DNA from: Candidatus Rokuibacteriota bacterium
GTDB lineage: Bacteria > Methylomirabilota > Methylomirabilia > Rokubacteriales > CSP1-6
NCBI GenBank assembly: GCA_003220475.1
Contig: QHSO01000011.1
Location: 608-64,607, forward strand
Direction: 5' to 3'
DNA length: 64,000 bases
In this document: positions 6,155 to 34,137 of the stretch, one piece after another
Numbering within the stretch: the stretch's first letter is position 1
Layout of the letters: every line of letters starts with the position of its first letter
The notes under the pieces: generated by a model
The model's input: only the letters and a program-made list of their open reading frames with translations
The model's database searches: none
What the model was told of the DNA's origin: nothing
Position numbers and translations under genes: made by a program

Positions 6155-7039
6155 ATGGCCAGGCATGCGTCGCGACGCCATGGGCGGGAGCAGGACAATG
6201 GCCACGGCCGTCACTCGGGGCCGCGTGCGATGTGGAAAGGCGCGCTCACGTTCGGACTGGTGACCGTGCCCGTCGCGCTCCACGCCGCCACCGAGCGCAA
6301 GAACGAGCTGACCTTTCGCCTCCTGCACGCCAAGGACGAGAGCCCGATCGACTACAAGCGGTTCTGTGAGGAGGAAGGCGTGGAGGTTCCCTGGCGCGAG
6401 ATCGTCAAGGGCTACGAGCTCGCGAAGGGCCGCTACGTGGTGGTGACCGACGAGGATTTCGACAAGGCGCGTGTGAAGGCGACGCAGACCTTCGAGATCC
6501 GTGACTTCGTGCCCGCCGACGCGATCGACGACCTCTACTTCGATCATCCGTATTATCTGGCGCCGGCGGGGCCGGGCGCGGCGAAACCGTACGCGCTGCT
6601 GCGCGATGCGCTCGACAAGAGCGGCCGCGTCGGCGTCGGCACGATCGTGCTGCGGCAGCGCGAGCATCTCGCGTCCGTGGCGCCGTCGGGCGAGGCGCTC
6701 GTGCTCACCACGATGCGCTGGGCGTACGAGATCCGCTCGGCGTCCGGGCTCGGCCTGCCGGGTCGGACGGCCACGCGCGATCGCCGCGAGCTGGATCTGG
6801 CGCTGCAGCTCGTCGACACGCTCGCCGGCGAGTGGAATCCGCGCCGTTACACGGACACCTATCACGACGTGCTGATGGACGTCATCCGGCGCAAGGCGGC
6901 CGGCAAGGAGACGCGCGCGCCGAAGGCCGAGCGGCCGGCGAAGGTGCGCAGTCTCATGAGCGCGCTCGAGGCCAGCCTGCGTGAGCGCCCCCCCGGCGCC
7001 AAGGCCGCGGGCCGACGCCCGGTACGCCGCGCGGCCTGA
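6155..7039 (+). CDS. ku: Non-homologous end-joining protein Ku
   Basis: RAMWKGALTFGLVTVPV, IVKGYE, YFDHPYYLAP, KPYALLRDAL, basic C-terminal tail. Confidence 0.95.
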   Translation: MARHASRRHGREQDNGHGRHSGPRAMWKGALTFGLVTVPVALHAATERKNELTFRLLHAKDESPIDYKRFCEEEGVEVPWREIVKGYELAKGRYVVVTDEDFDKARVKATQTFEIRDFVPADAIDDLYFDHPYYLAPAGPGAAKPYALLRDALDKSGRVGVGTIVLRQREHLASVAPSGEALVLTTMRWAYEIRSASGLGLPGRTATRDRRELDLALQLVDTLAGEWNPRRYTDTYHDVLMDVIRRKAAGKETRAPKAERPAKVRSLMSALEASLRERPPGAKAAGRRPVRRAA

Positions 7040-7086
7040 TCCGCTCTCTCGTTCGCCGTCGCCCGCTGTAGTAGTCTGCCAGCCCG

Positions 7087-7884
7087 ATGATCCGGCTCGC
7101 CGAACGCACGTGGCGCGAGGCGGCGCGGCTCGCGGCCGATCCGCGCAGCGTCGTGCTGTTGCCGCTCGGCGCCATCGAGCAGCACGGACCGCACTTGCCG
7201 CTGCTCGTGGACTGGCTCGGCGCCGAGGAGCTCGCGCGCCGAGTCGCGCCCCACCTGCGCCGCGCGGGGTTCCGGCCTCTGCTGCTGCCGGGCCTTCCCT
7301 ATGGGGCCAGTCCGCTCGCGCGCGGTTTCGCCGGCACGATCGGGCTGTCGACGCGCACGCTGGTCGCCCTCGTGACCGAGATCCTCGGCGCGCTGACGAC
7401 GCAGGGCTTTCGTCGCTTCGTGCTCGCCAACTACCAGGCGGATCCCGCGCATCTCGTGGCGATGGCGCGCATCAAGCGACGACTCGAGCGGCGCGCCGGC
7501 GTGCGCGTGCTCTTCGCCGGCTTCGCGCCCACGCCCCGCGCGCAGCGCGCGATGACGGACGCGCGAGTCACGCGGCTGCTGCGAAGCCCCGCGCCCGCGC
7601 GCGAGTGGCATGCGGGCGAGCTCGAGACGGCGCTGGTGCTGGCCACGCGCCCGAGGCTGGTGCGTCGGCGGCTCGCCCGCCGGCTGCCGGCGCACTGGAT
7701 CGACGTTCGCGGCGCCCTCGACACGTGCACGACCTTCGGCGAGATGGATGCGAGCGGTCGCGGCTACTTCGGCTGGCCGGCGGCCGCGCGCGCCGTCACC
7801 GGTCGTCGAGCGCTCGCCTTGCGCGCTCGGCTCCTCGCCCGCGCGTTGCTGGCCGAGCTCGGCGCGCCGCTCAGGAAGCGATGA
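7087..7884 (+). CDS. Creatininase/creatinine amidohydrolase family protein
   Basis: LPLGAIEQHGPHLPL..D, FAGTI, HAGELET motifs. Confidence 0.85.
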   Translation: MIRLAERTWREAARLAADPRSVVLLPLGAIEQHGPHLPLLVDWLGAEELARRVAPHLRRAGFRPLLLPGLPYGASPLARGFAGTIGLSTRTLVALVTEILGALTTQGFRRFVLANYQADPAHLVAMARIKRRLERRAGVRVLFAGFAPTPRAQRAMTDARVTRLLRSPAPAREWHAGELETALVLATRPRLVRRRLARRLPAHWIDVRGALDTCTTFGEMDASGRGYFGWPAAARAVTGRRALALRARLLARALLAELGAPLRKR

Positions 7885-8443: not shown

Positions 8444-9000
8444 CACGCGGTCTCCAGGCCGACGAGCACCGCGGCCGGCCCGCGGCGTTTTTGCGCGAGG
8501 CGGTAGTATTCCGGGATGAAGCGCACGTCGTCGGGCCCCTCGAGCCTCGCGTGCGGCACGCCGAACAGGTCGAGCAACGGCTCGCAATAGCGCACCATCG
8601 AGTGACGCGACTCGCGCGGCTCCTTGTCCTTCTCGCGCTGCAGGAGGCCGATCATGTAGAAGATCGGTACGCGACCGTCCATGGCCACGCCGCGCAGCGT
8701 GTTGACCGACGCGTACAGGCCCGCATGCTGGATCATCAGCGCGAACGGCTCGCCGCCCATCCACAACCCCGCCGCGATCGCGTTGGCCTCGTCCTCCGTC
8801 GAGCACGTCAGCACCCGCAGCGTGCGCTCCTTGTCGAGCGCGGCCAGCACGCTCTTCTGGTGCGTGTCCGGAACGCTGAGGATCCAGCCGAGGTGGTCGT
8901 GGCGCGGGCGCACACCCTCGGCGGCGAGCGAGGCGCGTGCCTCGCGAAACGTGTCCTTGAGCGTGTCGATGATGAGCGGCGCGGGAATCGATTCGGGCAT
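8443..9000 (-). CDS. TPP-dependent decarboxylase alpha subunit (ComD-like)
   Basis: SVPD, STEDEANAIAAG, LMIQHAGL..SVN motifs; MPESIP start at 9000. Confidence 0.78.
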   Translation of the reverse strand: MPESIPAPLIIDTLKDTFREARASLAAEGVRPRHDHLGWILSVPDTHQKSVLAALDKERTLRVLTCSTEDEANAIAAGLWMGGEPFALMIQHAGLYASVNTLRGVAMDGRVPIFYMIGLLQREKDKEPRESRHSMVRYCEPLLDLFGVPHARLEGPDDVRFIPEYYRLAQKRRGPAAVLVGLETA

Positions 9001-9059
9001 CGGGCCCTCCGCAAGCGAAGTGGGCCCGATTCTACCCTGAAACCCGCGCCGCCCCGCCG

Positions 9060-9347
9060 CTACCGCGTGGTGTCTGGGGTGACGACGACTGCGGGCGGCA
9101 CCGAATAATAGCCAGGAACGCTCGCCGAGCCGGCCGCGTCGCTGTGCTGGGCCAGCGGCGCATCGGTGTTCGGCGAGACCAGCACCGGCGAGTCCGGCGA
9201 CGGCGGCGAAGCCGACCAGACGGGCGATGCCGACGGGTATGCCGACGTGTCCGGGTAGTACGACGTGTCTCTGGTCGCGGTGGACGCGCAGCCGGCGACC
9301 GCTGCCGTCAGCGCGAGCGTAAGAGCGACAAAAAGAAACTTCCTCAT
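9060..9347 (-). CDS. Small Ser/Pro-rich lipoprotein (95 aa)
   Basis: GGAGG RBS, MRKFLFVALTLALTAAVAGC lipobox. Confidence 0.7.
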   Translation of the reverse strand: MRKFLFVALTLALTAAVAGCASTATRDTSYYPDTSAYPSASPVWSASPPSPDSPVLVSPNTDAPLAQHSDAAGSASVPGYYSVPPAVVVTPDTTR

Positions 9348-9376
9348 TGCAAGCACCTCCACGTGGCGACGACGGT

Positions 9377-9391
9377 GCAGGGTCGGTGCCA
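9377..9391 (-). promoter_or_regulatory. Sigma54-type promoter for the lipoprotein
   Basis: TGGCAC-N5-CTGC upstream of the RBS. Confidence 0.5.
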
Positions 9392-9430
9392 CCGCGCGAC
9401 GCAAAGCGCTCGCGAAAGCTGCGTCGCCAT

Positions 9431-9462
9431 ATAGTAGTGGCCGTGGATAGTAGTGGCCGTGG
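9431..9462. repeat. Perfect 16-bp tandem duplication at the DinB gene start
   Basis: ATAGTAGTGGCCGTGG at 9431-9446 and 9447-9462. Confidence 0.95.
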
Positions 9463-9962
9463 AGGTTCGTGATCGCCTCGCCGCGTGGGGCCGGCGTCCG
9501 CGCGCGGAGCGACTGGCGCGGTTGGCGACAACCGCCTCGGAGTTGCCGGCGCGTCTGGCGACCGCGCCGGCGACCGTCCTCACGCGCCGACCCGCGCCCG
9601 ACGCCTGGGCGCCGGTCGAGATCGTCTGCCACCTGCGCGATCTCGAAGAATCGTTCCACGAGCGGCTCGCACTCATCCTGACAACCGACGAGCCGCGATT
9701 CCCGACGACGAATCCCGATCGCTGGGCCGCGGAGCGCCAGTATCTGCGTCAGGACACACACGACGCCGCGCGCGCCTTCGCGCGCCGCCGCGCCGACACG
9801 CTGACGGTTCTACGCGGCGTCAACGATGAGGCGTGGACCCGCGCCGGATGGCAGCTCGATTCGCGCGGTCGGCGGACAGTCGACGACTTCCTCACGCTCA
9901 TCGCGTGGCACGACGACAACCACATCGAGCAGCTCGCGCGAGCGCTCGAAGGGCGGCGGTAA
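9453..9962 (+). CDS. DinB/YfiT-like metal-dependent protein
   Basis: W...EIVCHLRD.E and WHDDNHIEQL His motifs. Confidence 0.85.
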   Translation: MAVEVRDRLAAWGRRPRAERLARLATTASELPARLATAPATVLTRRPAPDAWAPVEIVCHLRDLEESFHERLALILTTDEPRFPTTNPDRWAAERQYLRQDTHDAARAFARRRADTLTVLRGVNDEAWTRAGWQLDSRGRRTVDDFLTLIAWHDDNHIEQLARALEGRR

Positions 9963-9964
9963 TT

Positions 9965-9996
9965 CGGAGCGCCCCGGCAAAAGCCGAGGCGCTCCG
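9965..9996. terminator. GC-rich hairpin between convergent genes
   Basis: CGGAGCGCC..GGC-AAAA-GCC..GGCGCTCCG inverted repeat. Confidence 0.55.
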
Positions 9997-10007
9997 AGGC
10001 CGTCCCG

Positions 10008-10448
10008 CTACGCGGCGCGGGCGTGGGGAACGGTCAGTCGATCGATGATCTCGACGTCGGGACGAAGCCGCGCGGCTTCCTCGCGCGCGACACGCAGCAC
10101 CGTATCGCGCATGGCCCCATCGGGAACCTCGCCGCTGAGCTCGATGATCGCCGGGCCGCGGCCCCACGTCGGCACGTTCGCCGTCGGCGTCAGGACGAGA
10201 CCCGCCAACCGCGCGTCACGCATCAGCGCGTCCGAGACCTGCGCCTGCAGATGCACGGCCTCCGCATCGCGCTTGCGCTTGCGATCGTAGAGCTTGACGG
10301 CGATGCCGACGATCACCAGCAGGCCGAGGATGACGAGGAATCCCAGCGCCGCCGAGCCACCGCTCGTCGTCGCCGGTGCGGCCGGCGCAAGGCCGGTGGC
10401 CGGCGCCGTGGCCGAACTTTGCGCCCAGGCAATGCCGAATGTCATCAC
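10008..10448 (-). CDS. Membrane-anchored protein with BON-like C-terminal domain
   Basis: One TM helix followed by QVSDAL..DARL...IELSGEVP...VEIIDRLTV, resembling a BON domain. Confidence 0.6.
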   Translation of the reverse strand: MMTFGIAWAQSSATAPATGLAPAAPATTSGGSAALGFLVILGLLVIVGIAVKLYDRKRKRDAEAVHLQAQVSDALMRDARLAGLVLTPTANVPTWGRGPAIIELSGEVPDGAMRDTVLRVAREEAARLRPDVEIIDRLTVPHARAA

Positions 10449-25013: not shown

Positions 25014-25129
25014 TCCAGGTGCAGCACGAGTCGGACGAGGTCGAGTGGCCCGAGCTCGCGATCGAGGTACGCCGACATGCGCGCGATCGCTTCGCGGCAC
25101 GTTATCAAGATCGGCGTGCGCCGGCTCAC
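25013..25129 (-). pseudogene. Truncated zf-HC2 anti-sigma-like gene
   Basis: GTG coupled to the cyclase stop; ITCREAIARMSAYLDREL...LVLHL then no CxxC, frame runs into antisense pcp sequence. Confidence 0.6.
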
Positions 25130-26961
25130 GAGGCCTCCGAGGCGGCGCCGGTGGTGCCCATGGTGTCGAGCACGGCGGCGTCGGCCGGGTCCACCGATGT
25201 GAGGTGAATTCGCACGCGTCCGGCCGTCTGGGTCGTGACCTTGCCCCAGAGATCGCCGGACACGCGGCCGAGCTCCGGCCATGTCAGTCGAAGCCGCACG
25301 TTGGTGAGCGGCGCGAGCGGCGTCTCCAGTTCGGCCTCGAGCTGCCGGCCCGACACGCGGCGCACGCGTCCGGCGAACGATTCGCTTCGGACCTGCTTGC
25401 CGTCGACGACCCAGCCGACGAGCGGCAGCGAGACGTCGCGCTCCGCGGTCACAACGGCGTCGCGACGCTGCGCCCACCGGCCACCGAGCCCGCGCAGCTC
25501 GTAGAGCGCCACGGGCGCCTCGAGGCCCTTGAGCTCGACGTGCACAGGCGGCGCCACCTCGGCCAGCGGCCCCAGGTAGCGCACGGTCGACTCGGTCAGC
25601 AAGATCTGGCCGCCGACCGTGCAACTCTCGACGCGCGCCGCGAGATTGACGGCGGCGCCGACCACCGCATACTTCGTTCGCTGCTCGGAGCCGATGTTGC
25701 CGACCACGGCTTCGCCGGTGTTGATCCCGATGCCCATCTCGAATCGTGGGCGCCCGCGCGTGGCGTTGGCCTCGTTCAGCGCATCCATCGCGCGCTGCAT
25801 GGCGAGCGCCGTCGCCGCCGCGCGCTCGGCGTGATCGGTGTGCTCGATCGGCGCGCCGTACACCGCGAAGATCGCGTCGCCGATGAACTCGTTGATGGTG
25901 CCGCCATGCGCGATGACGATCTCGGCCATCTTCCCCAGGTAGTCGTTGAGGACGGCCATGACGCCGGCCGGATCGCCGTGCTCCGCGAATCGCGTGTAGC
26001 CGCGCAGGTCGGACATGAGCACGGTGATCTCGCGCTTGCGGCCGCCGAGCGCCAGCCCGTCCGGCGACTCGAGCACGGCGCTGGCGACCTCGGGGGAGAC
26101 GTAACGGCCGAAGGCGTTGCGAATGATCTCGCGCTGGCGCAGCCCCTCGACCATCGCGTTGAAGGCGCGCGTGAGGTGGCCGACCTCGTCGCGCGAGCTC
26201 ACGGTGGGCGCCTGCGAGAGATCGCCGGCGGCGACTCGGCCGGCGGCGCCGGTCAGCGCGACGATCGGCCGCGTGAGTCGCCGGGCGAAGACGATGGCCA
26301 GCACGACCGACAGCAGCACGCCGGCGACGCTGCCCAGGGCGATCGTCTTATCGAGCTCGCGCAGGCGGTCGAAATAGAAATCGACCGGATAGTCGACCTG
26401 GAGCACGGCCGCCGCGGCGCCACGCGCGTCGAGGATCGGCGCGAAGGCGCTGATGCGCATGCCACCGCGCGTGCGATAGATGCCCGTATAGCGCGCCACG
26501 CCGTCCTCGAACGTCCACGCGACGGCGTTCGCGGCCTCCGGCCCGATCGTCACCGTCTCACCCGGGCGCTCGTCGTCGGCGGTGGTCACGACGATGCGCG
26601 CGCGTCGGCTGACGGGGTCATAGCTGGCCAGCGTCCGCATCGGCGTCGTGAGCAGAGTCTCCTCGCGAATGGCGGCCAGCGCCCTGATGACCCGGCGATA
26701 GGCGGGTGTGTCGGCTCGGACGGCACGCGCGGCCTCGGCGTGTGCGGTGCGGTCGACCATCAGCGCGCTCACGCGCGCGATGTTTAGCAGCTGCGTGCCG
26801 ACGGTATCCTCGACCTCCGCGCTCTGGCGCCGATGCACGAGCACGCCGACGACCCCCACCGTGAGCAGCGTCACGACGACGAAGACGGCGGCGAGCCGCA
26901 CCGCCAGGCGCTGCCACGGGCGCAGCGCCGGCGCCGTCGGAAACGCGCTCGCGCCCATCAT
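25126..26961 (-). CDS. Membrane-bound class III adenylate/guanylate cyclase with HAMP domain
   Basis: 2 TM, HAMP (RPIVAL...RDEVGHL..AFN.M), SDLRGYT, FIGDA, GIGINTG, GAAVNLAARVE; ATGA-coupled to DoxX. Confidence 0.92.
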   Translation of the reverse strand: MMGASAFPTAPALRPWQRLAVRLAAVFVVVTLLTVGVVGVLVHRRQSAEVEDTVGTQLLNIARVSALMVDRTAHAEAARAVRADTPAYRRVIRALAAIREETLLTTPMRTLASYDPVSRRARIVVTTADDERPGETVTIGPEAANAVAWTFEDGVARYTGIYRTRGGMRISAFAPILDARGAAAAVLQVDYPVDFYFDRLRELDKTIALGSVAGVLLSVVLAIVFARRLTRPIVALTGAAGRVAAGDLSQAPTVSSRDEVGHLTRAFNAMVEGLRQREIIRNAFGRYVSPEVASAVLESPDGLALGGRKREITVLMSDLRGYTRFAEHGDPAGVMAVLNDYLGKMAEIVIAHGGTINEFIGDAIFAVYGAPIEHTDHAERAAATALAMQRAMDALNEANATRGRPRFEMGIGINTGEAVVGNIGSEQRTKYAVVGAAVNLAARVESCTVGGQILLTESTVRYLGPLAEVAPPVHVELKGLEAPVALYELRGLGGRWAQRRDAVVTAERDVSLPLVGWVVDGKQVRSESFAGRVRRVSGRQLEAELETPLAPLTNVRLRLTWPELGRVSGDLWGKVTTQTAGRVRIHLTSVDPADAAVLDTMGTTGAASEAS

Positions 26962-27434
26962 TCTCCGCGACAGGTGGGAGGCTCGAGGCCGAGCACGCGG
27001 TCCAGCGACCACGGACCGGCGCCGCGCGTGAGGAGGAACAGGAGAATCGAGGCCCAGGTCAGATGCTCGGAATAGGCGTTCGGGTACACGAACGTCTGGA
27101 TCACCACGATCATGCCGAGCAGCGGCAGCGTGGCGACCCGGGTGGCGAGACCCAGGATCACAAGCGCCGAGCAGCCGAGCTCGAAGGTTGCCGCCATCGT
27201 TGCGGCGAGCTCCGGGGAGAGCACCGGCACCTTGTACTCGTCGGCGAACAGCTGCACGGTCGTCTCCCACGACGCGATCTTGGTGAGCCCGGCCTTGACG
27301 AACACGCTCGCGACGCCCAGCCGGAACATCAGCTGCAGCAGCGCCAGCGGGAACCGGCCGAGCACGTCGAGAAGCCGCGCCAGCGAGGCCCGCACGCCGG
27401 AGGCCGGCATCGTCGTCAGCGCCTGCGTGGCCAT
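26958..27434 (-). CDS. DoxX family membrane protein (BufD-like)
   Basis: FRLGVASVFVKAGLTK, LFADEYKVP, LGLATR, GAGPWSLD. Confidence 0.9.
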   Translation of the reverse strand: MATQALTTMPASGVRASLARLLDVLGRFPLALLQLMFRLGVASVFVKAGLTKIASWETTVQLFADEYKVPVLSPELAATMAATFELGCSALVILGLATRVATLPLLGMIVVIQTFVYPNAYSEHLTWASILLFLLTRGAGPWSLDRVLGLEPPTCRGE

Positions 27435-27435
27435 G

Positions 27436-27705
27436 TCAGGCCTTCTTGGGTTCCTTGCTGCCGCCCACGACCTTGTCGCACGAGCCCGCCGGGATGTAGA
27501 TCCACGCGTCGCCCTGGTTGTCGCGCTTGGAGGTGCCCGCGCACGACGAGTTGGCCGTCTGGCAGTCGTTCTTGCCCGCCTTGGCGATGCCGAAGCACTT
27601 CTCGGCCTCGAACTTGGGTTTGGGCGCGGGGCCGGCGTGCGATGCATAGGGCATCGCGAGCGCGGCGGCCACGGCAGAAGCGATGAGCAACGTCGACGTC
27701 TTCAT
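27436..27705 (-). CDS. DUF2282 family secreted Cys-rich peptide (bufferin BufA1-like precursor), 89 aa
   Basis: AAGGAGG RBS, signal peptide, EKCFGIAKAGKNDC....SCAG...W.YIPAGSC.K..GG with four Cys. Confidence 0.9.
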   Translation of the reverse strand: MKTSTLLIASAVAAALAMPYASHAGPAPKPKFEAEKCFGIAKAGKNDCQTANSSCAGTSKRDNQGDAWIYIPAGSCDKVVGGSKEPKKA

Positions 27706-27733
27706 GATCGGGACCTCCTTATGAGAGTTGCTT

Positions 27734-29743
27734 CTAAGACACGCGCGGCCGCCGGGATGGTGCGGCGGTCGCGCCGAGCACGTGCCAGGCCCGCAGCGTC
27801 TCCGCCACGCTCCAGGCCTGAGCGATGCACCCGTTCGGCGCGAACGGCGGCTCGCCGTCGAAGATCTCGGCAATGGAGCCGAGGCCGTGATCGGTAAGAT
27901 GGTCGGCCATCGGCGTGAGAAAACTGCGCGCCGTGTCGGCGTCACCGTACGCCGCAAAATGGGCGAGGGCGAACGGGCCGAGTAGCCAGCCCCACACGGC
28001 GCCCTGGTGATAGGCGCCATCGCGCGCGCCCTGGTCGCCGCCGTAGCGCGCGACGAAGCGCGGATCGAACGGCGCGAGGCTCCGCAGCCCGTACGAGGTG
28101 ACGAGATGGCGCGCGCACGCGTCGACGACGGCGCGACGCCGCTCCGGCGACAGCGGAGTGGCCGGCAGCGAGACGGCGAAGATCTGGTTGGGGCGCAGCG
28201 TCGCGTCGTGACCGTCGGCCCCGTCGAGCACGTCGTAGCACCAGCCGTCGCGCGCATTCCAGAAGCGCTCGAATCCCTCGGCCACGCGCGCGGCGTCGGC
28301 GTCGAGGTCGCTGGCGGGGCGCCGCAGCCGCCGCGCGAAGTCGGTCATCGCCACGAGAGCGTTGTACCAGAGCGCGTTGATCTCGACGGGCTTGCCGGTG
28401 CGCGGCGTCACGACCCGGTCGCCAACCTTCGCGTCCATCCATGTGAGTTGCACGCCAGGCTCTCCCGCGGCGAGCAAGCCATCGGCGGGGTCCTGCCGAA
28501 TGCTATAGCGCGTGCCTTGGCGATGCCAGGCGAGGATCGACTCGAGCGTCGGATAGAGGTCCTTGAGCAGGCCGTCGTCGCCGGTCGCCGCGTGATACGC
28601 GCGAATCGCCTGGAAGTACCAGAGCGTCGCGTCGACCGTGTTGTACTCCGGCGCCTGGCCGTCGTCCGGGAAGCGATTTGGCAGCAGCCCGCGGTCCACG
28701 AAGCGCGCGAACGTCATCAGAATTTTCCGAGCCACGTCCGTGCGACCCGTCGCCAGCGTGAGGCCGGGCAGCGCGATCATCGTGTCGCGGCCCCAGTCGC
28801 CGAACCAATGGTAGCCGGCGATGACCGTGGCGCCGTCGGGATCGTCGGGCAACGGCCGCCGCACGAGGAACTGATCCGCCGCAAGAACGAGGCGGCGCAT
28901 CCATTCGGGCGCCGTATCCGCGTTCGGCTGCGCGCGCGTCCAGCGCGCCAGCACGTCGCTCTCGTGCTCGATACGCCGCTGCCAGGCGGCATCGCCGTCG
29001 GGTGCCGGCGCCGCTTCCGCGGAGAGCGTCAGCGTGAGCGCGGCGCCGGGTGCGAGCGTGGCGCGGAAGGTTCCTGCGTGCAACTCGTCATCGACGTGGT
29101 CGAGGCCGCGCTCGCGCTCGCGCGGCAGGTCGAAGTCGCGGAACCACGTGTGCGCGCCGTCGGCGTCGGCGCCGGGGGCCAGCAACAGCAGCGGCCGCGC
29201 GCCGTCGAACGCGATGACACGCAGGCCGTCCGCCACGCGGGCGACATCCATGCGCCAGTCTCCGGCCCGCGTCGTCGCGTGATAGTCGCGATAGTTGACG
29301 AGGGTCTTCACCCGCAGCGTCAGTGGCTCGCGCGCGCGCAGCACTCGCCAGCGGATGTGTGTGGTATTGGCGCCGTGCTCCATCCAGACGCACTTTTCGA
29401 CGAGCGCGTCGGCGCATGCGTAGGTCCACACGGGCGTGGTGCCGTCGAGACGGAAGCGCTCGATGAGCCGGTAGCCGTGGGGATCGACGATGCCGCTCAC
29501 CCAGCGCGCGGCGAACAGCGGCCATTCGGCACCGGCGTACTCGACGGTCTCGTGGACGCCGGCGGCCATCACCGTCCGTCCCAGCGGTGGCTTCAGTGCG
29601 GCGACGAGCAGCGCGTGATAACGCCGCGTCGGCGTGCCGGCGATCGTCCCCGAGGCGAAGCCGCCGATGCCGTTGACACAGAGCCACTCGCGCCGCTCGG
29701 CGGCGCGGAGGTCGCCCGTGACGGCGCGGCCCCAGGTCAGCAC
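27734..29743 (-). CDS. Amylo-alpha-1,6-glucosidase (glycogen debranching enzyme family)
   Basis: [54 protein letters not shown]. Confidence 0.95.
27735..27763 (-). promoter_or_regulatory. ECF-type promoter motif upstream of the DUF2282 precursor
   Basis: GCACCA-N15-GTGTCTTA, same spacing as motifs at 29780 and 31937. Confidence 0.5.
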
Positions 29744-29779
29744 GATGCCAGGGCACCGCGAGGCCTGGCCGCGGCGCGC

Positions 29780-29809
29780 GCATCGATCAGCGGCGAGCCC
29801 GTGTCCAAA
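29780..29809 (+). promoter_or_regulatory. ECF-type promoter motif upstream of DUF692
   Basis: GCATCG-N15-GTGTCCAAA, 8 nt before ATG 29818. Confidence 0.55.
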
Positions 29810-29817
29810 GAGGCGCG

Positions 29818-30654
29818 ATGCGTCCCGGCGACTGCGGCATCGGCCTCCGCGCGCCCCACGTGGCCGAGGTGCTCGAGCACCGGCCCGTGGTCGGCTGGCT
29901 CGAGGTCCACGCCGAAAACTACATGGGCGGCGGGACGGCCATCAGAACGCTTGAGCGCGTGCGCGCCGAGTATCCGCTGTCCGTGCACGGCGTGGGCCTC
30001 TCGATCGGCAGCGCGGAGGGTATCGACACCGCGCACCTCGAGCGGCTGGCGAGACTGGTCGAGCGCCTGCAACCCGTGCTCGTCTCCGAGCATCTGTCGT
30101 GGAGCGTGACAGGGGGCGCGTACTTGAATCATCTGCTGCCGTTACCGTACACCGACGAGGCCCTCGCGGTGATCGCCGATAACGTCGCCCGCGCGCAGGA
30201 TCGCCTGGGGTGCCGGCTGCTCGTCGAGAATCCCTCGGGCTATCTGCGGTTTCGCGGCTCGTCGATGTCCGAGCCGGAGTTTCTCAACGCGCTGGCGCGC
30301 CGCACCGGCTGCGGCCTGCTCTGCGACGTCAACAACGTCTATGTCACGTGCGCCAATCTGGGCGGCGACCCGGCGGCATGGCTCGACGCCCTCGACCGCG
30401 CCGCGGTCGCGGAGATTCATCTCGCCGGCCACGCCGTGAACAACGCCGACGGGCGATCGATCCTGATCGACGACCACGGCTCGCCAGTGGCCGATCCCGT
30501 GTGGGAGCTGTTCGCCCACGCGCTCGGCCGATTCGGTCCGGTCCCGACGCTGATCGAGTGGGACACCGATCTTCCAGCGCTCGGCGTCCTGCTGGGCGAG
30601 GCGGCGAAGGCGCGAGCGTATGTCTCGAAGGCGGCCGATGTCGTCGCTGCGTGA
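29818..30654 (+). CDS. DUF692 multinuclear non-heme iron oxidative enzyme (MNIO, BufB-like)
   Basis: [56 protein letters not shown]. Confidence 0.95.
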
Positions 30655-31399
30655 GCTGCAGGCGGGATTCCGCGCCGCGCTGCTCGACGAAGCGGAGGCG
30701 CGCGTGGTTTCGGAGATCATCGACGACGGACTCGGCGCCTCTGCGCGCCTGGCCGTCTATCGTCACCACGTCTTCACGAGTCTCACCGACGCCCTGGGGA
30801 CCACGTATCCCGTCGTCTGCCGGCTCGTCGACCGCCGTTTCTTCGGCTGGCTCGCCGATCGCTACGTGCGCGCGCATCCGCCGGCCAGTCCATGCCTGTT
30901 CGAGTATGGCGGCGAGCTCGCGGCGTTCCTCGCCGCCTTCCCCGCGTGCGCACACCTGCCGTGGCTGGCTGACGTGGCGCGGCTGGAATGGGCGATCAAC
31001 GGCGCGCAGCACGCGCCTGGGGCGACGCCGCTTCTGGCCGATATCTGGCGTAGCCTCGACGCCGATGGGTTGGCGGCGTTGACGGTTCAGGTCGATCGAT
31101 CTGTCACGCTGCTCGAGTCGCCGTGGCCCGTCGATGCGATCTGGCGCGCCAATCAGGCCGGCGCCGATGGCGCCGTCGATCTCGTCGCCGGCGCGGTACG
31201 GCTCGAGGTTCGCCGCATCGACGACGACATCGTCTTGCGCGCGCTCCCTGCTGGATCGTTCGCCCTTCGTGCGGCGCTCGCCGCCGGCCGAACGTTGCAG
31301 GAAGCGGTAGACCGCGCGCTTCTCGCAGAGCCGGCTTTGAACCTCGCGCGTGAGATCCGCGCGCTACTCGACGACGGCATGCTGGTGCTGCCGGGATGA
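30638..31399 (+). CDS. DUF2063 family partner protein (BufC-like)
   Basis: [22 protein letters not shown]...[14 protein letters not shown]; overlaps DUF692 end. Confidence 0.9.
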
Positions 31400-31426
31400 C
31401 GTCCGCACGACGTCATCCTTTTCGCA

Positions 31427-31915
31427 TCAGCCCTGCAGCTGAACCGTCCGCTCTCCGGCGCGCACGCGCGCGTCCCAGCTGACATCGATCGCGCCTTTGA
31501 CGCTCTCGTGCGCCGGGCATCCCGCCGGATGCGCGGCGAGCGCGCGCTCGGTCGCCTCCAGCGCGTCGGCGGGGACGGCGAGCTCGTAGTGCACGTGGAT
31601 CGAGCGGATCTTGATCGTCTTGCCGTGGCCGACGATGCGGCCCTCGACGGAAGCCGTGAAGCCGTCGCGGTCGAACGCGATCTTGCGCCCTGCCAGGGCG
31701 CCACGCAGAGTGCCGAACATTCAGCCGGCGACGCCCGCAACGATGTGGTCGAGCGTCGAGGCCACCGGCGGGCCCTCCGGCACGCCATAGTACTGGCGCA
31801 GGCGGCCCTGCACGCCGTACACGACGGGCTCGGGAACGTCGCCGAGATACGCGTGGCGCGCACCGTTCTTATAGACCAGGCGGGTCTTCGAGACGTATTC
31901 GAAATCGTCGGCCAT
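31427..31915 (-). CDS. OsmC-like selenoprotein (162 aa)
   Basis: STLDHIVAGVAG-TGA(31721-31723)-MFGTL in frame with ORF 31427..31720; second OsmC Cys in GCPAHESV; AAGGAGG RBS. Confidence 0.88.
31685..31701 (-). promoter_or_regulatory. Putative SECIS hairpin of the OsmC-like gene
   Basis: GCGCCCT-GGC-AGGGCGC stem starting 20 nt after the TGA; same CTGGCAG apex as the peroxiredoxin hairpin. Confidence 0.68.
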
Positions 31916-31936
31916 GTCGGACTCCTCCTTCGTTCG

Positions 31937-31966
31937 TTTGGACACGGCTCCGCGCGGCGTCGATTC
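31937..31966 (-). promoter_or_regulatory. ECF-type promoter motif upstream of the OsmC-like selenoprotein
   Basis: GAATCG-N15-GTGTCCAAA. Confidence 0.55.
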
Positions 31967-31988
31967 CGCGAGGTGTAGACTCGCGCGC

Positions 31989-32588
31989 GTGAGCGCCGAC
32001 GATCGCACCCTGCTCACACGCGCGGCAATGGGCGATGGCGAAGCCCTCGAGGCGCTGATGAGCCGCTACGCCTCACGCATCTATCGGCTCGCGTACGGTA
32101 TCACGCGCAGCGCGCCGGACGCCGAGGAGGTCGTGCAAGACGTGTTCTTGCAGATCGTCAACAAGGGCGCGGGCTTCGAGGGCCGTGCGGCGCTGGGCAG
32201 CTGGATCTATCGGATCACGACCAATGTCAGCCTCAACAAGCGGCGCGGCAAGCGCCGCGAGCTCGAGACGCCGCTCGACGAGCTGCTGCCGACGTTCCTT
32301 CCCGACGGTCACCGGGCCGGCGATCGCGCCTTCGTGGTGGCGGATTGGTCGAGCACACCGGACCGGGAGCTGCTGGCCGGCGAGTCGCGCCGACTCCTGG
32401 AGGCGGCGATCGACCGGTTGCCCGCGCACTACCGCGCCGTGCTCGTGCTGAGAGACGTCGAGGAGCTGTCCAACGAGGAGGTCGCCGAGATCGTCGGCGA
32501 CACCGTGGCGGCGGTGAAGACACGGCTGCACCGCGCGCGGATGGCGCTGCGCGAGCAGCTCACGCGGGACCTGAGAACCGGCGCATGA
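31989..32588 (+). CDS. ECF RNA polymerase sigma factor
   Basis: DAEEVVQDVFL, SWIYRI..N, LP..YRAVLVLRDVEELS.EEVAEI...VKTRLHRAR; TAGACT-N7-GTG start. Confidence 0.95.
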   Translation: MSADDRTLLTRAAMGDGEALEALMSRYASRIYRLAYGITRSAPDAEEVVQDVFLQIVNKGAGFEGRAALGSWIYRITTNVSLNKRRGKRRELETPLDELLPTFLPDGHRAGDRAFVVADWSSTPDRELLAGESRRLLEAAIDRLPAHYRAVLVLRDVEELSNEEVAEIVGDTVAAVKTRLHRARMALREQLTRDLRTGA

Positions 32589-32818
32589 CCTGCCGCGACG
32601 CCATCGACATCCTCGCCGATTACGTCGACGGTGCGATGCCGGCTGAGCTCGCGGCCGAGCTCGAGCGGCATCTGGCGGGCTGCGAGCCCTGCCGCGCCTA
32701 CCTCGCCACCTATCGCAAGACAGGCATGCTCGGTGCCATCGCCGGCCGCGTCGACATGCCCGCAGAGATGCAGACGCGACTGCGCCGGTTCCTCAGCGAG
32801 CAGCTTCGCCGCGCCTGA
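32585..32818 (+). CDS. zf-HC2 (ZAS) anti-sigma factor, soluble
   Basis: MTCRD...LADYVDG...HLAGCEPC (HxxxCxxC); ATGA-coupled to sigma. Confidence 0.9.
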   Translation: MTCRDAIDILADYVDGAMPAELAAELERHLAGCEPCRAYLATYRKTGMLGAIAGRVDMPAEMQTRLRRFLSEQLRRA

Positions 32819-32877
32819 CGCTCGCGCACGATCTGCGGACCGGGCGCGCTGGCCCGTCGCGATAGAATCGATTTCCT

Positions 32878-34137
32878 GTGAGACCGCCCCACGTTCGCCA
32901 CAACGTCGTCGCGCTCGGCGCGGACTACGCGCTGTTCATGGTGGCGCTGGCGTTCGTCTCGCCGACGACGATCTTGCCGGCCTTCGCCGCGTGGCTGGGC
33001 GCGCCCAACATCGTGATCGGCGCGATCCCCGCCGTGATGACGCTCGGCTGGTTCCTGCCGTGCCTCTTCGCGGCGCCGCATACCGAAGGGCTCACGCGCA
33101 AGCTGCCGTTCCTGGTGCGGTGGACGGTCTGGGAGCGCGTGCCGTTCCTGCTTCTCGCGGCCGCCGCGTACTGGCTCGCCGAGCGCTCACCCGGGGCGAC
33201 GCTGGCCGTGCTGCTCGCGATGCTGCTGGCTGTGACGGGCGTCGGCGGCCTGCTGATGCCGGCGTGGATGGATCTCATCGGCCGCGCGATTCCGGTGACG
33301 ATGCGCGGACGGTTTTTCGCGGTGTCGAGCGTCGCCGCCAGCCTGCTCGGCCTCGGCGCGAGCGCCGCGACCGCCGACGTGCTCGCGAGCCATCGTCCGG
33401 CCGTCGCGTACGCGCTCTGCTTCGTGTGCGGCTTCGTGTGCCTGATCGTGTCGTTCGTCGCCCTCGTCCTCGTGCGCGAGCCCCTCGCGGCCGCCGCGCG
33501 CCCGCGGGAACCGCTCGGCGCGTATCTGCGGCGCATGCCCGCGCTGCTGCGCGACGATCGCAATCTCGCGTGGTATCTCGTCGCGCGGTCGCTGGCGGCG
33601 GTGGGCGCCGCGGGCACCGCCTTCTACACGGTCTACGCGTTGCACGCGTGGCGGCTGCCCGCGTCGGCCGCGGGCATCTTCACCGCGCTCCTGCTGTGCG
33701 GCACGATCGCCGGCACCATCGTGCTCGGGTGGCTTGCCGACCGTGCGGGCCACCGCATCGTGCTGCTGGCCGGAGTGGCGGCGAGCGTGGTCGGCAACGT
33801 TATCGCGCTGGCGGCGACGTCGCCCGCCACGTTCGGCGTCGCGTTCGCGCTGGCCGGCGTGCAGACCGCGTCGATCACCGTCTCGGGGCTCAACGTGCTC
33901 CTCGAGTTCGCGCCGGTCACCGAGGCGCAGCCGACCTACCTGGGCCTCGGTAACACCTTGCTGGCGCCCATCGCGTTCGTGGCGCCGCTGGCCGCCGGTC
34001 TCCTGGCCGATGCCGCCGGGTTCTCCGCGGTCTTCGCCATCACCGCGCTCGGCGGCACAGCCGGCATGCTGCTGCTGGCGCTACGCGTACGGGATCCGCG
34101 CGCTACGCGCGCGCTGGCCGCCGGGAGCCGCGCGTGA
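32878..34137 (+). CDS. MFS transporter
   Basis: About 12 hydrophobic segments, GWLADRAGHR motif. Confidence 0.88.
   Translation: MRPPHVRHNVVALGADYALFMVALAFVSPTTILPAFAAWLGAPNIVIGAIPAVMTLGWFLPCLFAAPHTEGLTRKLPFLVRWTVWERVPFLLLAAAAYWLAERSPGATLAVLLAMLLAVTGVGGLLMPAWMDLIGRAIPVTMRGRFFAVSSVAASLLGLGASAATADVLASHRPAVAYALCFVCGFVCLIVSFVALVLVREPLAAAARPREPLGAYLRRMPALLRDDRNLAWYLVARSLAAVGAAGTAFYTVYALHAWRLPASAAGIFTALLLCGTIAGTIVLGWLADRAGHRIVLLAGVAASVVGNVIALAATSPATFGVAFALAGVQTASITVSGLNVLLEFAPVTEAQPTYLGLGNTLLAPIAFVAPLAAGLLADAAGFSAVFAITALGGTAGMLLLALRVRDPRATRALAAGSRA

Follow-up and report, generated by a model that had tools for sequence, protein, structure and literature searches.

A conserved ECF-type promoter motif at a split bufferin locus and a selenoprotein OsmC gene of Rokubacteria, and its probable dependence on an adjacent sigma factor/zinc-finger anti-sigma factor pair

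The DNA analysed here is a stretch of 64 000 nt (the window; all positions are those of this stretch) with a base composition of 70 % G+C, from contig QHSO01000011.1 of an uncultured soil member of the Rokubacteria (Methylomirabilota), whose assembly comprises 4.8 Mb, is 92 % complete and also has 70 % G+C. It carries a split bufferin (buf) locus, encoding a peptide that is made on the ribosome and modified after translation (RiPP) and its partner proteins, together with a gene for an OsmC/Ohr-family protein with selenocysteine (Sec) and adjoining genes for an extracytoplasmic function (ECF) sigma factor and a zinc-finger anti-sigma factor (ZAS). Three transcription units of this locus, bufA-doxX, DUF692-DUF2063 and OsmC, are each preceded by the same spaced motif, which, judged by its sequence, has the properties of an ECF promoter; the three promoters most likely answer to the adjacent sigma/zinc-finger anti-sigma pair. 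The locus is thus probably a compact regulon of this ECF sigma factor, which would be held by the small soluble zinc-finger anti-sigma factor. An earlier reading of the same DNA (the initial annotation) had as its central proposal that one ECF-type promoter is common to both buf halves and the Sec-OsmC gene, beside an ECF sigma/ZAS pair, and both the conservation of the motif and its co-occurrence with the sigma factor support this.

A spaced motif before three transcription units

The motif has the consensus CG[A/C]A[C/T]C-N16-GTGTC[C/T][A/T]A and is bipartite, asymmetric and non-palindromic, with boxes that resemble those of ECF promoters of the GAAC...GTC class. All three of the spaced motifs to which the initial annotation had drawn attention were found precisely where it had described them (Table 1). 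The copy at bufA (GCACCA-N15-GTGTCTTA) lies 30 nt 5′ of the bufA ATG and overlaps the final codons of the gene for a glycogen debranching enzyme (GDE), including its TAG stop, that at DUF692 (GCATCG-N15-GTGTCCAAA) lies 8 nt 5′ of the ATG, the end of its GTGTC being 12 nt from that codon, and that at OsmC (GAATCG-N15-GTGTCCAAA) lies 21 nt 5′ of the OsmC ATG. The string GTGTCCAAA occurs four times in the 4.8-Mb assembly, both strands counted, and two of these occurrences are at the locus, both with ATCG at equal spacing. The degenerate pattern given in the initial annotation has three matches in the window against 0.31 expected, a number that was reached in 2 of 100 shuffles. A genome scan for the motif had also been suggested there; with a weight matrix for which the window and 40 related buf loci supplied 78 strict sites, the three sites of the window give the top three scores in the assembly, the fourth standing at 18.4 bits. 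Weaker matches of 16-18 bits (on contigs C266, C42, C21 and C54; contigs, loci and genomes are given our own C, L and G numbers) were rejected as regulon members, as they lie within open reading frames or have no gene start 3′ of them. An antisense motif-like match within the sigma gene (about 32516-32547; also in L099) was likewise rejected as a site, and is likely to be a by-product of coding conservation because it falls in conserved region-4 coding sequence.

Of 201 genomes sampled from the phylum, 51 have a DUF692 orthologue, these genomes all belonging to two families of one order, and 40 of those DUF692 loci were retrieved and their genes and motifs mapped. The totals of 51, 126 and 72 of the 201 include genomes flagged as unpublished (G029 and G057; G029, G046, G100 and G151; and G046 and G057, respectively), from which no locus DNA was retrieved and which otherwise enter only the genome-level overlap given below. 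Random 200-nt pieces of the genome to which the window belongs were scored for their best match, and the 99.9th percentile of these values, 9.6 bits (maximum 10.3), served as the threshold for a site. Conservation of the motif before orthologues, which the initial annotation had named as a check on its proposal, is evident at both halves of the cluster: a site precedes bufA in 31 of the 39 loci with enough upstream sequence (the window being counted here and in the other tallies made with this threshold), its position being kept in all 18 split loci, and a site precedes DUF692 in 19 of 41 loci. The latter are all 19 of the split loci and none of the 22 with the canonical bufA-B-C-D order, in which DUF692 is internal to the operon, and in every split operon each half has its own copy of the motif. 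In 11 of the 19 split loci the motif stands 11-13 nt from the start of DUF692 (range over all 19, 1-35), which suggests a very short DUF692 leader. A gene of the AhpC/TSA family (peroxiredoxin [Prx]-like, with Sec) is preceded by a site in six of six loci, one of them borderline at 9.8 bits. OsmC itself is directly preceded by a site in 3 of 13 loci, and elsewhere follows the AhpC/TSA gene or has no site; GAATC-N16-GTGTC precedes the (Prx-)OsmC unit in all eight same-genus loci that reach that far. Positions that form no part of the search pattern are also conserved, namely the C before the -35 box (0.87), the C before GTGTC (0.72) and the A three bases past GTGTC (0.91). Among 103 motif instances, a count that includes same-genome duplicates across two locus sets, 91 are in sense orientation and at most 160 nt 5′ of a recurrent gene family.

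A similar box is seen upstream of the GDE gene in relatives (L097, L098, L101, L104, L106, L112 and L113), where GTGTCC(T/A)A with a weak -35 element scores above threshold in 7 of 11 cases and stands back-to-back with the DUF692 promoter. The corresponding box in the window (29744-29790, minus strand) reads GGTGCCCTG and is degenerate, with a score of -2.4, and GDE may therefore no longer belong to the regulon in the window.

The sigma factor and its anti-sigma factor

The distribution of the motif follows that of the adjacent sigma factor. In 245 kb around sigma genes whose products are 59-85 % identical to that of the window there are 19 matches to GAAYC-N16-GTGTC (as compared with two at a spacing of N15 and none at N17), against two matches to the N16 form in 966 kb around sigma factors at most 50 % identical, and 10 in the 4.8-Mb genome. 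This corresponds to 7.7 matches per 100 kb in the first set and to 0.21 both in the second and in the whole genome, a difference of about 37-fold. A sigma factor at least 58 % identical is present in 25 of 30 genomes with a bufA motif and in three of eight without one, in what is a rough phylogenetic profile of related and partly incomplete genomes. All three sites of the window are within 4.3 kb of the ECF sigma gene, whose nearest paralogues in the assembly encode proteins 49-51 % identical, with no other sigma factor above 51 %. Two loci of another genus (L100 and L120) have the sigma and ZAS genes 3′ of DUF2063 and in the same orientation, behind the motif, and since the pair there sits within the motif-driven DUF692 operon, the pair would be autoregulated in those two loci.

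The sigma factor consists of regions 2 and 4 only by Pfam and scores 93.1 bits against TIGR02937 (cut-off 42.9); its best solved relative is SigW (1.5e-21), and its closest relatives overall are proteins of Candidatus Rokubacteria / Methylomirabilota metagenome-assembled genomes. The gene for the anti-sigma factor follows directly, its ATG overlapping the sigma stop codon (ATGA), and encodes the motif H-LAG-C-EP-C (H-x3-C-x2-C); all 18 orthologues and paralogues in an alignment share residues C3, H29, C33 and C36, and no hydrophobic stretch was seen by eye in the 77 residues. The adjacent ECF sigma factor and soluble HxxxCxxC anti-sigma factor of the initial annotation are therefore both borne out by Pfam (regions r2 and r4_2, and zf-HC2), the solubility being judged by eye. 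The best solved relative of the anti-sigma factor is RsrA (E 0.0061), with RsiW nearly equal (0.011), and its score against the RsrA equivalog TIGR03988 is 30.4 bits, under the cut-off of 62.5. RsiW is not a redox sensor. NrsF (DUF1109, PF06532) was not found in a search of the 92 %-complete assembly, while the control genome, Caulobacter, did give a match; this and the zf-HC2 type of the adjacent anti-sigma factor support the earlier suggestion that a different sigma system operates here. The most economical guess for the inducing signal is thiol oxidation or a thiophilic metal, because a cytoplasmic zinc-thiolate sensor is combined with a regulon of peroxidases and flavoproteins; the label 'metal/thiol stress' is thus one that we infer from the content of the regulon and the type of anti-sigma factor.

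The sigma gene seems to have a promoter of another kind. A housekeeping-type -10 box, TAGACT, stands just before its GTG start (Table 1), and in relatives L003-L006 the sequence TG-n-TAGACT (TACTCT in L006) is found 7-8 nt 5′ of the sigma start, which suggests that the sigma mRNA is leaderless and made from a housekeeping-type promoter. We note that in the window this putative promoter stands back-to-back with that of OsmC (31974-31991).

A mechanism can be proposed on this basis. The sigma factor would be made together with the 77-aa cytoplasmic anti-sigma factor (Cys3-His29-Cys33-Cys36), which, from its family membership, would keep it inactive, and a signal within the cytoplasm, most likely an electrophile, the oxidation of thiols, or copper or another thiophilic metal at the zinc site, would set it free. 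As the conservation, position and co-occurrence of the motif suggest, free sigma would then guide RNA polymerase to three promoters: that of bufA-doxX, a unit that may extend into the adenylate cyclase gene; that of DUF692-DUF2063, whose products, by homology, would convert cysteines of the exported BufA1-type peptide to copper-binding thiooxazoles; and that of the putative Sec-containing OsmC/Ohr-type hydroperoxide reductase. The sigma gene would be transcribed from its housekeeping-type -10 box as a leaderless mRNA, with no auto-induction in the window. An ancestral bufABCD operon would have been broken up in this lineage, each half having kept or gained a copy of the promoter.

Several points weigh against such a regulon of the adjacent sigma factor. 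Recognition of the motif by this protein is deduced from adjacency and co-occurrence, all the support is comparative, and the related genomes are non-independent samples. Five of the 30 motif-bearing genomes (72-91 % complete) showed no sigma factor at least 58 % identical, and three of the eight motif-less genomes have one. No copy of the motif was found 5′ of the sigma gene in the window, which is unusual among ECF sigma factors. The weight matrix scored loci on which it had been trained, the window's three sites being among its 78, and only the threshold is independent; because the matrix holds these three sites the genome-wide ranking is slightly circular, which the plain pattern counts are not. 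Cys-His-Cys-Cys zinc sites are also present in anti-sigma factors that do not sense redox state, and RsiW aligns with the anti-sigma factor about as well as RsrA. Away from buf, 17 of 20 OsmC loci are without the motif (3 of 20 have it), and several of them show sigma-70-like boxes. Among public sequencing runs, at least half of the stretch's sampled words are present in 19 from soil DNA, and 0.05 of them in one RNA run. The latter yields three near-identical short contigs, at 29864-30014 and 30025-30231 (in DUF692) and at 32459-32715 (the sigma/anti-sigma junction); these cannot reveal starts, ends or strand, could be due to DNA carry-over, and were not counted as expression.

An alternative is that the motif is a true promoter of the ECF type but is recognised by a different sigma factor encoded in the genome; its position beside this sigma/ZAS pair would then be incidental or a reflection of shared paralogue ancestry. 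We regard this as unlikely. It would accommodate the lack of a motif before the sigma gene in the window and the five motif-bearing genomes without a detectable orthologue, and candidates are available, since ten further ECF-like sigma factors are encoded in the assembly and a paralogous sigma group of relatives (59-70 % identical) is also found among motif sites. However, the nearest paralogues in the assembly are just 49-51 % identical to the adjacent sigma factor, around sigma factors at or below 50 % identity the motif shows no enrichment, and the arrangement of the genes, with three sites in close proximity to the sigma gene and, in L100 and L120, the sigma gene inside a motif-driven operon, argues for the adjacent protein.

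The motif could instead be an operator for a DNA-binding regulator, either DUF2063, which Pfam names a 'putative DNA-binding domain', or a factor that responds to cAMP and is tied to the neighbouring cyclase; the adenylate cyclase and, in relatives, a cNMP-binding NDH-2-like protein are conserved neighbours of the buf genes. This is more improbable still, as the motif is asymmetric, has two short boxes at a strict spacing of 16 nt, is oriented to a gene in 91 of 103 instances and is similar to the ECF GAAC...GTC class. Moreover, a scan of 26700-33000 found no sigma-70-type promoter that an operator might control, and in the survey of MNIO clusters DUF2063 is described as the partner protein of the MNIO in bufferin clusters (PMC12452194). 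That the three matches are a chance similarity in G+C-rich intergenic DNA, for which the shuffles and the partly coding position of the bufA site might speak, hardly merits consideration in view of their genome-wide rank, the single spacing, and the conservation both of orthologous positions across genera and of bases outside the pattern.

Several further observations concern the anti-sigma and sigma families. On contig C102 of genome G000, selD (8784-9734, plus strand, with an in-frame TGA) adjoins a lone anti-sigma paralogue (9857-10069, minus strand) that is 39 % identical to that of the window, and no sigma match was found on this contig. In L105 (8617-8838) and L109 (10668-10895) a zinc-finger anti-sigma gene lies directly 3′ of DUF2063, with no sigma factor at least 40 % identical between them, and this lone anti-sigma gene would sit within the maturase operon. 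The genes of the paralogous sigma group (59-70 % identical; L007, L009-L011, L014, L015, L017 and L018) have an upstream gene whose product ends ...FV(T/A)EQLK(G/V) and is STAS-type-like by eye, and no ZAS gene directly behind; motif sites at these loci precede genes for a nucleotidyl transferase, an NDH-2-like protein, GDE and an aquaporin-type channel.

The selenoprotein and the probable wider regulon

The OsmC gene has an in-frame TGA at codon 65 (31721-31723), and the conserved sequence continues past it. In an alignment with Ohr (PDB 1N2F), U65 and C133 fall on its two conserved cysteines, the first of which we take to be the peroxidatic one; C133, in the motif GCPAH, corresponds to the resolving cysteine. 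The TGA was conserved in all five of the orthologues first examined, and in the 126 of 201 Methylomirabilota genomes in which the family was found it is present in every match covering codon 65; OsmC thus seems to be a selenoprotein throughout the phylum, the 201-genome sample containing no Cys form. Just past the TGA is a hairpin similar to a selenocysteine insertion sequence (SECIS; Table 1), at which all 34 distinct orthologue sequences have the 17-nt GGCGCCCTGGCAGGGCG unchanged, with variation at neighbouring synonymous sites. Against its being a SECIS, the hairpin is no stabler than shuffled sequence (z 0.26), shows no covariation and has no Rfam match; a scan of 26000-34000 yielded only a chance miRNA match from Rfam, and thus no match to a curated SECIS or riboswitch. 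The machinery for Sec insertion is encoded in the genome (selA, 1e-153; selB, 3.7e-110; selD, 4.3e-100, itself with a TGA; and tRNA-SeC). The selenoenzyme of the initial annotation accordingly corresponds to a real selenoprotein gene, by virtue of the conserved TGA, the invariant hairpin and the insertion machinery, and from its sequence we propose that the product is a selenocysteine-containing OsmC/Ohr-type hydroperoxide reductase.

The initial annotation had also made its proposal depend on co-occurrence of OsmC-Sec with buf genes in related genomes, and such co-occurrence is found: OsmC is present within the retrieved stretch of 13 of the 40 buf loci, made up of seven of the eight from the same genus and six from three other genera. 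In L118, from a second genus, OsmC is back-to-back with bufA, with paired motifs scoring 25.0 and 23.7. At the genome level an OsmC orthologue at least 64 % identical is found in 28 of 51 DUF692-positive genomes and in 29 of 150 others, an overlap that overstates the link because both genes are concentrated in one family, and in which the flagged unpublished genomes are counted. OsmC was rejected as a core member of the regulon everywhere; given that so few OsmC loci outside buf carry the motif (the 3 of 20 given above), it is better seen as a recruited, lineage-specific member.

In relatives of the same genus (L097, at 6608-7258, and L003, L099, L104 and L107) the motif drives a unit in which a Prx-like AhpC/TSA gene precedes Sec-OsmC. 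The AhpC/TSA gene has an in-frame TGA, in the context W-U-P-Y-C, and each unit therefore has two selenoproteins. This gene has been lost from the window, where it is missing between 31916 and 31988, and is partially deleted in L113. The recurrent families preceded by the motif, representatives of which were checked with Pfam, are bufA, DUF692, an NDH-2-like flavoprotein with a cNMP-binding domain, SDR, AhpC/TSA, a second zinc-finger anti-sigma factor, an aquaporin-type channel, a nucleotidyl transferase and OsmC. In relatives the motif-driven NDH-2-like/cNMP-binding fusion is followed by this second small ZAS, and neither is present in the window. Most of the 40 related loci have an adenylate cyclase orthologue (56-88 % identical) adjoining buf genes, and the HAMP-adenylate cyclase is a conserved buf neighbour across the order (L100, L105, L108, L109, L111, L112 and L120), although it is a candidate regulon member only. 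These arrangements offer hints of a link to cAMP and of feedback via the second anti-sigma factor.

Known systems and the layout of the locus

The SigR/RsrA pair of actinomycetes is a thiol-oxidative stress system with the promoter GGAAT-N18-GTT. The pair in the window is similar in that its anti-sigma factor is small and soluble, with the zinc-finger pattern Cys...His-x3-Cys-x2-Cys, and has RsrA as both its best solved and its best NCBIfam match, and in that thiol peroxidases and flavoprotein oxidoreductases make up much of the regulon. It differs in that the anti-sigma factor is under the RsrA cut-off, the sigma factor is nearest to SigW and not SigR, the promoter is another one, and no thioredoxin genes were seen among the targets here.

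Promoters of the Caulobacter SigF type have the motif GTAAC-N16-CGAA, from which the sites in the window, CG[A/C]AYC-N16-GTGTC, are distinct. According to two reports, the Caulobacter buf1 and buf2 bufferin clusters are under ECF control by SigF/NrsF (PMC11626156, PMC12452194), and the likeness to the window is that an ECF sigma factor, taken to drive stress expression, is found beside a DUF2282-DUF692-DUF2063-DoxX cluster of the same four families. In contrast, the window has a 77-aa soluble zinc-finger anti-sigma factor where Caulobacter has the membrane protein NrsF, its buf genes form two divergent units that each have a copy of the promoter, and selenoprotein peroxidases appear to be co-targeted. 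As regulatory neighbours of Buf1, the main text of the MNIO survey, supplements aside, mentions nothing but sigma-70 regions 2 and 4 and NrsF, and zf-HC2, zinc and RsrA are absent from it (PMC12452194). A second comparison is with RpoE7/EcfR7 of Sinorhizobium meliloti, as described in PMC6180224, an ECF sigma factor that induces an adjoining DUF692-DUF2063 operon and has a very small regulon. There, however, the sigma and anti-sigma genes are themselves induced, the account includes no selenoprotein, and the promoters, printed as TGTAACA-N16-CGAAT, are different (PMC6180224).

OsmC-like selenoproteins are known from marine metagenomes, and in these Sec replaces the first redox cysteine of the OsmC fold, as in the window, and is followed by a SECIS hairpin with a G in its loop, of which the SECIS-like hairpin of the window is a candidate counterpart (PMC1088965). 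The window's protein has U-x3-T in place of their U-x-x-T (PMC1088965), and its gene lies behind an ECF-type promoter. It scores 19.9 against NCBIfam NF041052, 'OsmC-related (seleno)protein', for which the cut-off is 95, and hence belongs to another OsmC subfamily. Searches of the literature on bufferin/DUF692 regulation, on ECF sigma factors with selenoproteins and on selenocysteine in Rokubacteria, supplements aside, revealed no description of this combination, in agreement with the statement to that effect in the initial annotation. What is new here is a bufferin locus, apparently under ECF control, in which the anti-sigma factor is of another type, the promoter differs, the two parts of the divided cluster each have a promoter copy, and selenoproteins would be co-targets.

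Bufferins are a very large RiPP family, and we know of no cultured soil representative of this phylum. A broader interpretation, put forward tentatively, is that in Rokubacteria a cytoplasmic thiol/copper redox switch, made up of a minimal ZAS and an ECF sigma factor, co-induces a periplasmic copper-chelating RiPP and cytoplasmic Sec peroxidases (Sec-OsmC and, in relatives, Sec-Prx), the promoter having been copied to each fragment when the operon split. If true, this would be the first known ECF regulon built around selenoproteins, and bufferins would have been rewired, independently and by convergence, to an ECF sigma factor of a type other than that of SigF/NrsF, with co-regulation preserved by promoter copying to each fragment; the locus would thus serve as an example of promoter duplication that keeps genes co-regulated after an operon split. 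The tie between a periplasmic chelator and cytoplasmic selenoenzyme peroxidases suggests that bufferins may act in an oxidative or thiol-stress response and not in copper defence alone. The locus would provide a second scheme of bufferin control beside SigF/NrsF of the Alphaproteobacteria, one that is testable with a sigma/anti-sigma pair, a 30-nt consensus and three promoters within 5 kb, and the sigma factor with its promoter set might be usable as an orthogonal expression part.

The gene calls of the initial annotation were all confirmed by Pfam (Table 1), as was its divergent arrangement, with the precursor and DoxX genes on the minus strand, the MNIO and DUF2063 genes on the plus strand and the debranching gene between them.

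Table 1. Genes and sequence elements of the bufferin locus and its surroundings, in order of position in the window
Feature	Position	Strand	Remarks
HAMP-adenylate cyclase	25126-26850	-	3′ of doxX; Pfam HAMP 9.6e-17, Guanylate_cyc 3.2e-27
DoxX (BufD-like) membrane protein	26958-27434	-	Pfam DoxX 8.5e-17
BufA1-type bufferin precursor (DUF2282), 89 aa	27436-27705	-	Pfam DUF2282 3.3e-23
GDE, archaeal-type	27734-29743	-	Pfam GDE_C 8.1e-117, GDE_N 2.1e-68
bufA promoter motif, CGCACC-N16-GTGTCTTA	27735-27764	-	24.5 bits, rank 2 genome-wide
DUF692 promoter motif, CGCATC-N16-GTGTCCAA	29779-29808	+	25.1 bits, rank 1 genome-wide
DUF692/MNIO bufferin maturase, BufB	29818-30654	+	Pfam MbnB_TglH_ChrH 3.2e-103
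DUF2063 partner protein, BufC	30620-31399	+	Pfam DUF2063 3.9e-23; start uncertain; overlaps DUF692 end
OsmC/Ohr-family selenoprotein, 162 aa	31427-31915	-	Pfam OsmC 3.8e-09, 37.3 bits (cut-off 27.5)
SECIS-like hairpin, GCGCCCU-GGC-AGGGCGC	31685-31701	-	Starts 22 nt past UGA
OsmC promoter motif, GGAATC-N16-GTGTCCAA	31938-31967	-	21.1 bits, rank 3 genome-wide
Housekeeping-type -10 box, TAGACT	31976-31981	+	7 nt 5′ of sigma GTG start
ECF sigma factor, 199 aa from GTG start	31989-32588	+	Pfam Sigma70_r2 1.6e-13, r4_2 1.1e-15
zf-HC2 (ZAS) anti-sigma factor, 77 aa	32585-32818	+	Pfam zf-HC2 3.3e-12

All four Buf1 component families (DUF2282, DUF692, DUF2063 and DoxX, by Pfam) are encoded at the locus, and the DUF692 and DUF2282 genes are each present as a single copy in the assembly. 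In place of a single operon in the order bufA-B-C-D, bufA-doxX (minus strand) and DUF692-DUF2063 (plus strand) are 2.1 kb apart with the GDE gene between them, a layout that is not peculiar to the window, as 18 of the 40 related buf loci have it. Insertion of the GDE gene into the operon was rejected as an explanation; since GDE is located 5′ of bufA in genera with canonical operons too (L124 and L127), the split is better explained by relocation of the DUF692-DUF2063 pair.

The precursor has four cysteines in its core and a signal-like N-terminal segment, the signal being judged by eye, and the start of doxX and the stop of bufA share one base (ATG at 27434-27432, TGA at 27438-27436). DUF692 passes the NCBIfam MNIO_BufB equivalog (372.8 bits, cut-off 310) and GDE passes TIGR01561 (376.4 bits, cut-off 364); DoxX scores 58.1 bits against the NCBIfam HvfX family, under its cut-off of 80. 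A gene for an MFS transporter follows that of the anti-sigma factor on the plus strand. No intrinsic terminator was called in the scan of 26700-33000, for which the rule was a run of at least five Ts, so that a hairpin followed by TTTT in the convergent DUF2063/OsmC gap was missed. This candidate terminator (31394-31425, plus strand) is a 10-bp GC-rich hairpin with the DUF2063 stop codon inside it, and could possibly terminate the DUF692-DUF2063 unit.

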